The notes: a model not told the origin generated them from the letters alone. A stretch of 34,486 nucleotides of DNA from a virus (IMGVR_UViG_2645727868_000009), one strand, 5' to 3'. Positions 26,153-29,939 are shown, counted from the first letter of the stretch. Numbers and translations: made by a program.

Positions 26153-26402
26153 GTTTGTTATCCTCAAAACGCACGGTAAAACGTGAAACGCCAATCCCTG
26201 ACAAGAACGCAGCGGCACGGTCAAGAGACAACCACGTCTTGTAATCGCCACGGCGTTCCTGTAGAAAATAGGACACCCCGGCGCGGCGATTCACAGCGAA
26301 GAGATGATACACACCACCGAACCGCTGCACGACGAACTCATCCACGCCACCGCTTTCAGCCTGTTGCCGAAAGGCTGCCATTCCGATTTGTTCAATCTTC
26401 AT
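26124..26402 (-). CDS. Hypothetical early protein
   Basis: Start set to ATG at 26400-26402 (track start 26411 is TTG). Preceded immediately by two tandem palindromic units (see regulatory feature). Confidence 0.45.
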   Translation of the reverse strand: MKIEQIGMAAFRQQAESGGVDEFVVQRFGGVYHLFAVNRRAGVSYFLQERRGDYKTWLSLDRAAAFLSGIGVSRFTVRFEDNKHAEKDDRGH

Positions 26403-26405
26403 AAT

Positions 26406-26448
26406 GACCAAAACACTACTTTTGGCAGACCAAAAAACATGTTTTGGC
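26406..26448. promoter_or_regulatory. Two tandem 21-bp palindromic units (candidate operator)
   Basis: GACCAAAA-N-TTTTGGC at 26406-26426 and 26428-26448, each with perfect CCAAAA/TTTTGG arms and a 6-bp spacer; centres ~22 bp apart; they end 4 bp from the start of the 26124-26402 gene. Confidence 0.5.
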
Positions 26449-26556
26449 CTGCATTTGATTACTGTTTAAACAACTCGCGAAATCAGGAACGTCGAGTTTC
26501 GGTGATGGCTTTCATCGTGTTGTTGCTCCGTGATTCAGAAAATTTCATGCCGGGCC

Positions 26557-26967
26557 TCAGTATGTGAAATAGACAGTTGCCACGCCGTTATAGTGATCAA
26601 ACGACACGGCGTTTACCTCATAACTGGCCGGTAGCTTCGAGCCAAGAACGTATCCGGGCCACGTTTTCCATGGAATTTCTCTGCTCCCACTGTCGCCATA
26701 TACCGTACATCCCAGTGAGCCTACAGCTTCATAAGAACGCTTACCGCACGTTATGAATCCCAGATTTTGCTTACTGCTCTTAATGGTGATTGAGTGAACG
26801 CTGGCTGATGCATTAGCAGCACGCTGTGCCTGTTGGTTTGCGATATTCGCAGAGTTCGCAGCAGCTACAGCAGCCGTAGTCGCGGCGGTAGAGGCTACAA
26901 TAGCTGCTGAAGCATGCACTTGTTGGATATTCACCAACAATGCCGCGATAAAAATCATCTTCTTCAC
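26557..26967 (-). CDS. Secreted hypothetical protein
   Basis: 136-aa ORF; GTG start at 26965-26967 with AAGGAG 7 nt upstream (alternative ATG at 26958); signal peptide, Ala/Asn-rich low-complexity linker, Cys-containing C-terminal domain. Confidence 0.5.
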   Translation of the reverse strand: MKKMIFIAALLVNIQQVHASAAIVASTAATTAAVAAANSANIANQQAQRAANASASVHSITIKSSKQNLGFITCGKRSYEAVGSLGCTVYGDSGSREIPWKTWPGYVLGSKLPASYEVNAVSFDHYNGVATVYFTY

Positions 26968-27665
26968 TTGTCAGCTCCTTTGCGAATCTGTTCCGCCCAT
27001 TCTTCAAGGGATTTCTCCGCATATTCACCAGACAGGCCATCAATCGGATGCGCTTCATTAGCCAACTCTTCTTTCGCTGACAAAATCATGCGTGTAACGT
27101 CGAAAACTTCACGCAAAGACTTATTGATAAATCCGTGATTGAACGCAGCAGCAAGACGGCTTGCGGTGTAGTTAATCCCCTCGTTGCGTGCCTCCGCACG
27201 TATTTCAGCCAGGAAAGCATCGGTGGCTGGTGTTTCAGGTATCTGTCTCCTCATCCGTTCTATTGCATGATTGAACCCGAAGTCTTCCGCGAGAGATACG
27301 TCATCCATATTGTCATTGTCATCTTCAATATCCCGTGATTCTGGAATTGCAGACTTTATTCCCGCACTCTCCGCTGCCAGCGCCGCACGACAGGCCTCCA
27401 GTTCAGCAATACGCTTGTTTTGGGCTTCCCGCTCATCCAGTAGTGCCTGTACTACTTCAGGGTTGAAAGCTGCGATATAACGAGCGTTGTTCTCTGCGTT
27501 TTCCTGTCCATCAAAGCCGGTCCATTTGATAACGTCTTCACATCGTTTATCACCGGGTGTATGCACCGCATATGTACCAGTACCCGACGAAATAAATGCG
27601 ACCCATTCGCCTTGTGTTGCCTTTTCTGCCGCCTCACGCAGTGCCTGATAGTTAATTTTGCTCAC
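26964..27665 (-). CDS. Ead/Ea22-like protein
   Basis: Start set to GTG at 27663-27665 with AGGAGG exactly 6 nt upstream (in-frame ATG at 27683 also possible); acidic coiled-coil-containing protein with N-terminal YQALREAAEKATQGEWVAF segment recalled from Ea22-like proteins of enterobacterial prophages. Confidence 0.5.
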   Translation of the reverse strand: MSKINYQALREAAEKATQGEWVAFISSGTGTYAVHTPGDKRCEDVIKWTGFDGQENAENNARYIAAFNPEVVQALLDEREAQNKRIAELEACRAALAAESAGIKSAIPESRDIEDDNDNMDDVSLAEDFGFNHAIERMRRQIPETPATDAFLAEIRAEARNEGINYTASRLAAAFNHGFINKSLREVFDVTRMILSAKEELANEAHPIDGLSGEYAEKSLEEWAEQIRKGADK

Positions 27666-28026
27666 GGGTTGCCTCCTGTTCATTTCCCTTGTTCAGTTTT
27701 CGTCTGCATACAGCGCAATCATCGGGGCTTTCGAAGCTGTCTGGTTCGCGTTCACCAGAGTACATCCATCTGCGGCAGATACTGGTTACTTCATTCTCGG
27801 CAAAATAATGATATTTTTTCGACCTGGCTGGTCTGCCCCATCCAGCTGTTCTCTCGCTCACATCACGTTTTAATCCCCCCGCGCGGACCTCCTTTAGCTC
27901 CAGAAGGGCCAGCCTCAGAAGCGTCCACCACTCACTGTCTGCAACCGGCTCCATATCAAGCGCTCTGTCAGCATCAGCAATCAGTCTGGTCAGGCTCTTA
28001 TCGCTTATTCTGGTTTGCTGGCTCAC
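27652..28026 (-). CDS. Hypothetical protein
   Basis: Start set to GTG at 28024-28026 with AGGAGG 6 nt upstream (ATG at 28044 also possible); the junction is a near-identical copy of the one in front of the Ea22-like gene. Confidence 0.4.
   Translation of the reverse strand: MSQQTRISDKSLTRLIADADRALDMEPVADSEWWTLLRLALLELKEVRAGGLKRDVSERTAGWGRPARSKKYHYFAENEVTSICRRWMYSGEREPDSFESPDDCAVCRRKLNKGNEQEATREQN
27660..27685. repeat. 26-bp direct repeat at a gene junction (copy 1)
   Basis: GCTCACGGGTTGCCTCCTGTTCATTT; contains the AGGAGG RBS and GTG/ATG start region of the Ea22-like gene; one mismatch to copy 2. Confidence 0.7.
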
Positions 28027-28312
28027 TGGTTGCCTCCTGTTCATTTTTTTCATTCCGGTACACAAGAATTACGACATCTCCCCGGGTAATTACGCGTGCG
28101 GGGTCGCCCTGTTGCATATGGTCAATATCAAACGCGTCATTAAACGCATTTAGCGCCTTCGCGCGCTTGTCTTTACAACGACGTTTTTCACGCTGCTTAA
28201 AGAGCGAAGAAATCAACCACCTGAATGACATAAAAGTGATATAGCCATAACCGATAAGCGCCAGACCTGTATTCATGGCTACATCTATCGTTATCGTTTT
28301 ATCAATGACCAT
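27998..28312 (-). CDS. Hypothetical membrane protein
   Basis: 104-aa ORF, ATG start with AGGAGG 6 nt upstream; one predicted transmembrane segment near N-terminus. Confidence 0.4.
   Translation of the reverse strand: MVIDKTITIDVAMNTGLALIGYGYITFMSFRWLISSLFKQREKRRCKDKRAKALNAFNDAFDIDHMQQGDPARVITRGDVVILVYRNEKNEQEATSEPANQNKR
28021..28046. repeat. 26-bp direct repeat at a gene junction (copy 2)
   Basis: GCTCACTGGTTGCCTCCTGTTCATTT; same junction architecture in front of the 27652-28026 gene. Confidence 0.7.
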
Positions 28313-28532
28313 TGCCAGCCTCCTGTTTTGCCACTTTAAACGCCCGTAACATCGGGACCGTTTTACCGCTGATGACAGTGTTCATAACAATACCGATTCC
28401 ACTGTGATGTAACGCTCCCGGTGCAACAAACAGCGCAGCATCTACAACTCTGAAGTAACGGTGGAACTCCCAGAACCAGCAAGAAATAGTGATAGTTGCG
28501 GTGACCCCATGGTCATAAAATTCAATTTTCAT
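28302..28532 (-). CDS. Hypothetical protein
   Basis: 76-aa ORF, ATG start, weak RBS; stop overlaps next gene's RBS. Confidence 0.35.
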   Translation of the reverse strand: MKIEFYDHGVTATITISCWFWEFHRYFRVVDAALFVAPGALHHSGIGIVMNTVISGKTVPMLRAFKVAKQEAGNGH

Positions 28533-28756
28533 TTGCAGTTAAACCTTCTCTTATGACGTTCTACGGCAGCCTTCATATTGTTGTGCACGGTTCTTTTAAT
28601 AATCCGACGTCCCACACTGTCATAGAACCGCCACCGGGAAGCCCCCGGATATCCGGGGAACTCAACCACCGCGCTACCGTCATTCATCCTGTATTCGTGG
28701 CGTTCTCCGGGCGGCTGGTATATTGCTTCGGTAACACTGAGAAGTTTAAAAGCCAT
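28529..28756 (-). CDS. Hypothetical protein
   Basis: 75-aa ORF, ATG start with GGAGG upstream. Confidence 0.4.
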   Translation of the reverse strand: MAFKLLSVTEAIYQPPGERHEYRMNDGSAVVEFPGYPGASRWRFYDSVGRRIIKRTVHNNMKAAVERHKRRFNCK

Positions 28757-28758
28757 CG

Positions 28759-29469
28759 TTACACCCTCCCCAGTGCCAGCGGTCTGTTGCTCTGACCATT
28801 AACCCCCTGATGCAGTCTGGCGTTTTTCCCGGCGATAAAACCGGCTGTAGCGGCAAACTCTGCACCTCGACACGCTTTAGCTGTGCGCATATCCCCGTCG
28901 CGTAGCCCCTTAGTGCTGTGCAGGTTCTTTCTGTAAAGCTCAAGGCGGCTTTTTTCTTCCGGGGAGACGTCATACACCGCAATGACATCACGGGCACCAA
29001 AGACCCAGCCTTCGCAGAACTGGTCGCCACGGGCTACCCGCGTGGACGGACCACAACGTTTGCAGTGTTTATCCTGATATTTCTTGCGCTCTGCCATCAT
29101 CTGACGGGAAAGCACATCAAACGCGTAAGCCGCGATTTCCGGGCGGCTGTCAGAGCCATAAAAACGCACGTGACGTTTGAGTGAACCAGAAGCCCGGTAT
29201 TCGCCGGATATGTAACACTCGACACCGAAGGCTTTACAGACCAGGTCACACAGGATGTGCATATAACGCGGCGGTGTACTGGCATCACTCGGCGCACCCG
29301 CGCTGGCAGCTTCCTGAATGTCGAACAATTCAGCGTCGTTTTCGCTGATGCCATGCTGGCGCATATAAGCCTGGGCTTTTGCAATAGCGTTAGCGGCTTC
29401 TTCCGGGCTTGATGTTCCTCTGGCAAGGCGTAACAGTTTTTTGATTTTGGCAATGTATTTATCTTTCAT
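28759..29469 (-). CDS. DUF2786-like phage protein
   Basis: 236-aa ORF, ATG start; N-terminus (IAKIKKLLRLARGTSSPEEAANAIAKAQAYMRQHGI) matches the helical motif recalled for DUF2786; Cys-containing C-terminal domain; function unknown. Confidence 0.5.
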   Translation of the reverse strand: MKDKYIAKIKKLLRLARGTSSPEEAANAIAKAQAYMRQHGISENDAELFDIQEAASAGAPSDASTPPRYMHILCDLVCKAFGVECYISGEYRASGSLKRHVRFYGSDSRPEIAAYAFDVLSRQMMAERKKYQDKHCKRCGPSTRVARGDQFCEGWVFGARDVIAVYDVSPEEKSRLELYRKNLHSTKGLRDGDMRTAKACRGAEFAATAGFIAGKNARLHQGVNGQSNRPLALGRV

Positions 29470-29747
29470 GGTCGTCTGAACCTCAGCATCCTGAATTCTG
29501 AATTACGCAACTTCCGGCACGGCCTTCAGGAACGTGGGGAGTTCGTTCTGGCTGCGGCGCTGGATGAACATCTGCCGTCGATTGAGAACTGGTCGCAAGA
29601 CGATTAAAACAAACGATTGTCAGATTAATTTCGCGGGCGAATTTTTTTTGCTTAGCGATATTCATAAATAAACTTCCTCAGATTCAGGCGTAAGCCAGCC
29701 CCGGCGGGTTTACGCCTGTTTTAAATAACAATTAAAAACAAATTAAA

Positions 29748-29939
29748 TTAATGCGGTTCTTTCAGTGTTTCGACTTTTACGAAATAAGGCTCGACATTAA
29801 TTTCAACCACACAACCACATTTAAAATCTCTGGCAGGTGAAACGGTTTTCACCACACGACCACCACGCAACGCCGGATGTGCAGTGTGCATGAAGCGAGT
29901 CCCTACCGGATACTGCTTATTAAAGTTCTTCGCATTCAT
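29748..29939 (-). CDS. Hypothetical protein
   Basis: 63-aa ORF, ATG start, weak RBS; overlaps upstream gene end. Confidence 0.3.
   Translation of the reverse strand: MNAKNFNKQYPVGTRFMHTAHPALRGGRVVKTVSPARDFKCGCVVEINVEPYFVKVETLKEPH

Follow-up and report, generated by a model that had tools for sequence, protein, structure and literature searches.

Why do two neighbouring gene junctions in the early accessory cluster of a viral contig, IMGVR_UViG_2645727868_000009, carry almost the same 26 nucleotides (nt), and is this repetition a sign of how the cluster was put together? The whole stretch of DNA that was analysed, hereafter the window, is 34,486 nt long, and its minus strand holds the 26-mer AAATGAACAGGAGGCAACC[C/A]GTGAGC at 27660-27685 (copy 1) and again at 28021-28046 (copy 2), with one mismatch between the copies. 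Copy 1 spans the tail of an open reading frame (ORF) that we call ORF-B and the start of an Ead/Ea22-like gene, while copy 2 spans the tail of a DUF4752 gene and the start of ORF-B. An earlier note, made from this DNA alone, had proposed that such repeated junctions provide homology for cassette exchange and that the genes were assembled by recombination at them. The reading that we favour, with a probability of roughly 0.7, is that the 26-mers are local copies of a widespread translation-initiation linker that doubles as a short homology patch for cassette exchange.

Both copies are present where the earlier note had placed them. Copy 1 reads AAATGAACAGGAGGCAACCCGTGAGC (27685 to 27660) and copy 2 reads AAATGAACAGGAGGCAACCAGTGAGC (28046 to 28021), the difference being CCC versus CCA before the GTG, and a repeat search recovered the pair as well, with a spacing of 361 nt. 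Copy 1 is built from AAATGAAC, the Shine-Dalgarno sequence AGGAGG (27677-27672), the spacer CAACCC, GTG (27665-27663) and AGC; in copy 2, AGGAGG (28038-28033) is followed by CAACCA and GTG (28026-28024). The proposed ribosome-binding site and the GTG 6 nt beyond it are thus found in both copies, with the Shine-Dalgarno sequence lying inside the upstream ORF in each case. That ORF runs through each copy as AAT GAA CAG GAG GCA ACC, or N-E-Q-E-A-T, which had been described as the C-terminus of the upstream protein. The peptide is indeed encoded by each copy, but it stands near the C-terminus and not at it, since further residues follow (NEQEATRE... in ORF-B and NEQEATSE... in the DUF4752 protein) and the upstream proteins at the two copies end in ...NKGNEQEATREQN and ...NEKNEQEATSEPANQNKR before their stop codons. 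These stops lie past the GTG, by 14 nt for copy 1 (27652-27654) and by 29 nt for copy 2 (27998-28000).

The same design recurs at two further junctions of the gene array. A third junction had been said to share the core of the repeat at 28313-28325, and it does share it, the stretch in common being the 10-mer AACAGGAGGC at 28318-28327. This 10-mer occurs exactly three times in the window (27671-27680, 28032-28041 and 28318-28327), each time at an array junction. Junction 3 (28310-28327, minus strand) connects the tail of a 76-amino acid (aa) gene with the start of the DUF4752 gene and consists of AACAGGAGGC (28327-28318), TGGCA and ATG (28312-28310), so that AGGAGG again precedes the start codon by 6 nt; its 10-mer spans a stop/start junction, as do both 26-mers. 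Junction 4 (26965-26981, minus strand), AAAGGAGCTGACAAGTG, is a diverged linker of the same design, AAAGGAG CTGACAA GTG, at which the TGA of the Ea22-like gene overlaps the GTG of the next gene (GTGA). Strong ribosome-binding sites might of course resemble each other by chance, given that AGGAGG and CAGGAGGC are short: three copies of the latter stand in the window, all at array junctions, compared with an expectation of 0.95, and 11 of 100 shuffles of the window also gave three. The 26-mer, however, found no match with up to 3 mismatches in any of the 100 shuffles, and its core is common to hundreds of phages, which leaves next to no room for coincidence.

The linker is found far beyond this prophage, although its reach depends on how much of the 26-mer is followed. 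The core AGGAGGCAACCNGTGAG (17-20 nt) is present in at least 120 IMG/VR contigs. In what we call its canonical form the linker is AAAGGAGGCAACCAGTGAG[C/T], and at a canonical junction (..CGCAAAGGAGGCAACCAGTGAGC..) the upstream gene ends ..R-K-G-G-N-Q-stop, with its TGA overlapping the next GTG (..CAG TGA / GTG AGC). A 64-mer centred on this junction matched 393 phage records, including Stx phages, HK and mEp phages, HK620, Salmonella ST104, epsilon15, phiV10, and P1/P7-like phages; in HK620 the canonical linker is found between hkaH and hkaG, two genes with a 4-nt overlap, and in phage lambda the 64-mer matched the coding part of Ea22 only, with the linker unmatched. The longer forms have a narrow distribution. 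The 24-mer that includes the 5' ATGAAC was present in two IMG/VR contigs, both from the same prophage with the 361-nt spacing, and scans of viral contigs with this 24-mer and with a 17-mer including ATGAAC recovered this lineage and two unrelated contigs; as these scans were nearly limited to the lineage, the 5' 8 nt are local. The full 26-mer pair was found in 8 of 5,426 complete Escherichia coli genomes; it is limited to a single prophage lineage, in which the order is always DUF4752 / ORF-B / Ea22-like. The expectation that related phages would carry the linker beside different cargo is therefore borne out for the 17-20-nt core, which lies beside many unrelated genes in many phages, and fails for the full 26-mer pair. 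Since unrelated genes flank the core so widely, this is not a linker that is restricted to one locus and bordered by the same genes in all relatives. Scanning genome contigs with a 17-mer core also gave matches, those listed being mostly to Streptomyces and other GC-rich genomes; because they look like chance, we did not draw a taxonomic range from them.

To describe what the linker connects, we clustered the genes on either side of 134 core sites, of which approximately six are apparent chance matches in GC-rich contigs. Overall these sites gave 19 downstream clusters and 19 upstream clusters in 35 combinations, and without the chance sites the linker precedes Ea22-like genes (97 sites) together with about 10 unrelated downstream families and follows about 13 upstream families. 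Upstream genes read over the linker in two frames, ending ..RKGGNQ at about 100 sites, with the GTGA overlap, and ..EATSE[QR][DN] at about 25; the window uses the EATSE-type frame and in this differs from the canonical RKGGNQ frame. Two frames over the same nucleotides mean that it is the DNA or mRNA, rather than the tail peptide, that is conserved, and the tails NEQEAT.., EATSEQD and KGGNQ are by-products of one linker read in different frames. In a set of 69 Ea22-like genes that were collected independently of the linker, by protein sequence, approximately 55 had AAAGGAGGC[A/G][A/G]CCA ahead of GTGAGC, and the others had unrelated start regions. Across 48 distinct contexts, agreement with the consensus was 0.80 at positions -14 to -1, 0.53 at -25 to -14, and 0.42-0.47 further upstream; the conserved block thus starts about 15 nt 5' of the start codon, within whichever gene lies upstream.

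If the linker is a site at which cassettes have been exchanged, homology between relatives should tend to end there, and a comparison of fourteen related Mu-like prophage regions aligned to the window revealed many such ends. At least 9 different gene orders were found between two conserved anchor genes. Homology blocks stop at 26981, where the AAAGGAG of junction 4 has its 5' edge (8 loci), at 27680 where the upstream gene differs, and also at 28041 and 28316-28318; the breakpoints 26981, 27680, 28041 and 28318 are edges of linker cores. In three of the regions (L002, L125 and L126) homology stops at 27602 or 27624, where other alleles replace the body of the Ea22-like gene; what these regions retain is the linker, the first 14-21 Ea22-like codons and a few codons at the end. 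Four regions (L128, L129, L130 and L132) lack the DUF4752 gene, and in them the stretch aligned to 27955-28041 and the one aligned from 28318 on share precisely the 10-mer, so that DUF4752 is an insertion or deletion with AACAGGAGGC on both flanks. After the left half of junction 3 (..gtggcaaAACAGGAGGC), the relatives enter DUF4752, a small xQQTRIS gene, or an unrelated 63-aa gene. In the collinear part at 28318-29800, the other gene junctions were not breakpoints in alignments to the relatives. The block ends at linker-core edges and the 10-mer flanks of the DUF4752 insertion or deletion agree with the proposal that these genes were assembled by recombination at linkers; that the linker also promotes exchange, rather than just marking it, is a further step that we infer.

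The anatomy of the linker suggests how the two roles could be combined. A strong Shine-Dalgarno sequence, a fixed 6-nt spacer, and GTG with a Ser codon, all placed within the last codons of any upstream gene, would give the downstream cassette an efficient, unstructured translation start on a polycistronic early transcript, and the canonical form may also couple translation through its GTGA stop/start overlap. RNA folding found no structure at the three linker junctions (z = +0.42, -0.31 and -0.53). A sequence of about 20 nt that recurs at the cassette borders of co-resident enterobacterial prophages would at the same time offer a short patch of identity for recombination, and joining at the linker would leave the downstream gene with a functional ribosome-binding site and start codon. 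Such joining would have shuffled the DUF4752, ORF-B, Ea22-like and neighbouring cassettes in the early region of this family of Mu-like prophages. The minimal identity for efficient pairing has been reported as 23-27 base pairs (bp) for Red-beta and 31-34 bp for RecA (PMC3945230), which places the 26-mer, or the core of about 20 nt together with the first 60 nt or so of Ea22-like genes, within the reach of a phage recombinase.

Several observations weigh against this reading. The 10-mer, or the 17-20-nt core on its own, is shorter than the reported minimal pairing lengths, and the 10-mer alone would need microhomology-mediated joining. Stop/start coupling appears less likely in the window than in the canonical form, as the upstream stops come 14 and 29 nt after the GTG. 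If recombination were random and illegitimate and selection then kept only intact genes, breakpoints would likewise fall at gene borders, and their coincidence with linkers is therefore no proof of cause. Several breakpoints moreover fall inside genes (27889-27966 and 27236). The product of an exchange between the two 26-mers, in which DUF4752, linker and Ea22 would follow one another without ORF-B, was not found in the 5,426 complete E. coli genomes; wherever DUF4752 and Ea22 are direct neighbours, the junctions are lambdoid, about 70% identical and without the linker. Lastly, with 97 of the 134 core sites preceding Ea22-like genes, the spread of the linker could largely mirror that of the 5' end of this family.

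The last three of these points would be expected if the linker were simply the good translation start that belongs to the Ead/Ea22-like 5' end, with borders made by random illegitimate recombination and selection (the Hendrix model) and the 26-mers left as a passive scar. Such an origin would also suit the conserved block, which is continuous from about -15 into the Ea22 coding sequence, and the N-terminal module of ORF-B, to which the C-terminal domain of certain Ea22-like proteins is homologous. It does not readily explain why an identical 17-20 nt, including a spacer that is not part of the Shine-Dalgarno sequence, stands before about 10 non-Ea22 families, after about 13 upstream families and in two frames, a distribution that requires repeated joining to new partners; nor does illegitimate joining predict the same 10-mer on both flanks of the DUF4752 insertion or deletion. 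We consider the passive scar unlikely on these grounds, while giving it appreciable weight, and retain the translation-initiation linker that also serves as a homology patch as the preferred reading.

Because the linker keeps one orientation at cassette borders across unrelated phage groups, it might instead be the recognition site of a dedicated factor, such as an integron-like site-specific recombinase, or a regulatory protein or small RNA acting over the early genes. An inverted repeat search and a promoter and terminator scan found none of these elements at the linkers, and a search of Rfam over 26400-28800 likewise gave nothing there, its sole match being a sub-threshold one to mir-1538 (E = 0.23) elsewhere. 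With the linker lacking inverted repeat, hairpin and Rfam match, with no integrase or recombinase gene adjoining the array, with single-base variation like that of ordinary diverging sequence, and with an anatomy that is fully accounted for by a Shine-Dalgarno sequence, spacer and start codon, a dedicated site of this kind is very improbable. Only a slim chance can be given to a broader possibility, namely that the linker is a cross-family adaptor used preferentially by a phage single-strand-annealing recombinase or another factor. Were this true, small genes would move in an expression-ready state among lambdoid, P22-like, epsilon15-like, P1-like and Mu-like temperate phages of Enterobacteriaceae, and C-terminal KGGNQ and EATSE.. 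would be diagnostic scars of these transfers.

How the linker came to be duplicated with its local extension can be partly reconstructed. The 8 nt beyond the core in both copies (AAATGAAC) encode the conserved ..EKNE.. tail of DUF4752, and ORF-B and its L192 homologue cease to be homologous at ..AACAAGGGAAA, where copy 1 has its left edge. Copy 1 thus has the appearance of a DUF4752-tail/linker/Ea22 junction attached to a shortened ORF-B body. This joint may have formed through A-rich microhomology, and a single unequal exchange between two related genomes could give copy 1, which is probably the scar of one unequal microhomology-mediated join, the order of events being reconstructed from the present-day sequences. 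In relatives the DUF4752 tail is ..EKNEQEAAQ and a stop codon, with the spacer CGGCGCA and a GTGA overlap. The window has the canonical spacer CAACCA, which is 1 nt shorter, and DUF4752 therefore runs 9 codons further, to ..ATSEPANQNKR and its stop; this shows that the linker was imported as nucleotides, regardless of the upstream frame. A frameshift site at the A7 run before copy 2 was considered and rejected: copy 1 lacks a slippery run, and the Shine-Dalgarno sequence is downstream of the run, not upstream.

The linker also has consequences for annotation. Both GTG starts that the earlier note preferred to upstream ATGs, at 27665 and 28026, are supported by alignments of homologues. For the Ea22-like gene, the Prokaryotic Genome Annotation Pipeline (PGAP) uses GTG 27665 here and the upstream ATG in a relative. 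The ATG or GTG at which Ea22-like homologues start aligns with GTG 27665, the PF13935 model begins at residue 2 of the GTG-started protein, and in lambdoid Ea22-like homologues the equivalent codon is ATG (ATG AGC GAG ATT AAC). The upstream ATGs (27683 and 28044) have no adequate Shine-Dalgarno sequence ahead of them. For ORF-B, PGAP calls just the last 69 codons (27652-27861) and leaves 27862-27997 unannotated despite the continuous 124-aa ORF, which other pipelines do call (168 member sequences, P0001). A full-length homologue with 80% identity (P0004, from L192, another Mu-like prophage) has ATG as the homologous start, and the N-terminal module stands on its own in E2348/69 and AVS0151, as a 54-aa gene annotated from the GTG equivalent to 28026. 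We infer from these comparisons that translation begins at GTGs 27665 and 28026, and starts in this cluster should be set at the post-linker GTG, the reference annotation being inconsistent (GTG, ATG, and a shortened ORF-B). The short ORF-B start called by PGAP at 27861 is also GTG AGC (V-S); the nearest Shine-Dalgarno-like sequence, AAGGAGG, is 27 nt upstream and hence too distant to serve that start.

ORF-B itself is a real fusion, in which a phrog_14672 module (xQQTRISDKSL...) is followed by a phrog_2358-like part. The module, xQQTRISDKSL..EWWTLLR, was seen in three settings (P0014, P0015 and P0019-P0028): as a stand-alone gene of 54-105 aa, in some PF13935 proteins, where it forms the C-terminal domain, and after a different N-terminal domain, which suggests repeated gene fission and fusion around it. 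A protein of 189 aa from a public assembly (P0003, corresponding to 27652-28312 of the window) has DUF4752 fused in frame to ORF-B (..NEQEATSE joined to WWTLLRL..). The fusion resembles the outcome of a deletion from the linker's AGTGAG to another AGTGAG within ORF-B, in which case the linker would be the site of a further rearrangement.

It has long been proposed that modules are exchanged among lambdoid phages through short, conserved boundary sequences at gene borders (Susskind & Botstein 1978 and Clark et al. 2001, according to a passage of PMC3029335). The present linker resembles such sequences in measuring tens of bases, in standing at gene borders beside non-homologous genes in different phages, and in being the point where homology ends, and HK620 itself carries the canonical form; it differs in that the window linker lies in a Mu-like and not a lambdoid early region and is read in a non-canonical upstream frame. 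Work on HK620 by Clark and colleagues in 2001 reportedly described boundary or linker sequences of this kind at lambdoid mosaic junctions. A literature search for the literal linker sequence gave no match, the text of that work being outside the search. Translationally coupled junctions share the AGGAGG placed 6 nt before the start and within the upstream coding sequence, and in the canonical form the GTGA overlap, but unrelated gene pairs do not ordinarily have about 20 identical nt at junctions of this type, and in the window the upstream ORFs pass the GTG by 14 and 29 nt, which makes re-initiation at the stop inapplicable. The gene after copy 1 is a member of the Ead/Ea22-like family (PF13935; lambda exo-xis, P22 ea region), for which the linker is the usual 5' flank; however, the linker also stands before about 10 other families, and ORF-B after copy 2 does not belong to PF13935. 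Integron attC cassettes offer a further parallel, as both are arrays of small promoter-less cassettes with a recurring border element, but the present array has no integrase, imperfect palindrome or hairpin, and its element is a ribosome-binding site and start codon.

The phenomenon is thus known in principle and recognisable to specialists, and opens no new question; what is found here is a new instance in a Mu-like prophage, with frame-independent conservation and corrections to annotation. It provides a clean, checkable case of the old linker model of phage mosaicism, in which gain, loss and allele replacement of cassettes end at an element of about 20 nt, and it indicates that the accessory early region of Mu-like prophages draws on the cassette pool of the lambdoid ea/exo-xis region.

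The window is 100% identical to a segment of an E. coli chromosome (strain SCAID WND1-2021), and the gene content around the array identifies a Mu-like transposable prophage, with a Mu transposase, an AAA ATPase, DUF3164, gp16/GemA and Mor followed by lysis genes and terminase. This places the cluster in a Mu-like and not a lambdoid setting. In lambdoid phages, DUF4752 and Ea22-like genes typify the early-left accessory region. The cluster occupies a variable early region between DUF2786 and gp16, and all genes in the linker part of the window are on the minus strand. In the direction of transcription, the array opens with the 76-aa gene (28302-28532, phrog_1001, tail ..KQEAGNGH), the conserved left anchor of the variable cassettes. 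It is followed by the DUF4752 gene (27998-28312, 104 aa; Pfam PF15944, E = 1.6e-39), which is a presence/absence cassette; ORF-B (27652-28026, 124 aa from GTG 28026); the Ead/Ea22-like gene (26964-27665, 233 aa from GTG 27665; PF13935, E = 5.6e-37); and a 136-aa gene (26557-26967, phrog_8805), the conserved right anchor, which starts at the GTG of junction 4. The Ea22-like gene scores 127.8 bits against PF13935, for which the gathering score is 27, and so belongs to the family, whereas ORF-B had no PF13935 match in the Pfam search. A search of NCBIfam with six proteins gave no match.

Some variants of these genes in other prophages were also seen. In relatives that are otherwise 96-99% identical, the Ea22-like body (26982-27601 of the window) is replaced by an unrelated allele, of 209 aa or of 162 aa plus an XF1762-family gene. 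In lambdoid loci (L145, L157, L158, L161 and similar) the Ea22-like ATG lies inside the DUF4752 tail (..gagaaaaATGAGCGAGATTAAC) and the two genes adjoin directly; compared with the 26-mer junction, this arrangement looks like the outcome of an 18-nt deletion between ATGA[A/G]C and GTGAGC. The annotated start of the Ea22-like gene in L128 2309 (strain AH19B041) is ATA, just 3' of the normal Ea22 N-terminal coding stretch, and the gene is probably disrupted or mis-started.

Three other features of the window were noticed. An ORF of 227 aa on the plus strand (27561-28244) crosses both linker copies and three genes in antisense; it has no annotation in NZ_CP082831.1, and as the genes opposite it are well supported, we regard it as spurious. 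A 17-nt inverted repeat at 26859-26909 (minus strand) lies within the alanine-rich N-terminal part of the phrog_8805 gene, and the sub-threshold mir-1538 match at the same coordinates is almost certainly due to chance. A second inverted repeat, of 16 nt at 29685-29718 (88% complementary, 2-nt loop), is found between the early genes at 29483-29665 and 29748-29939 and may be a hairpin or terminator-like element.

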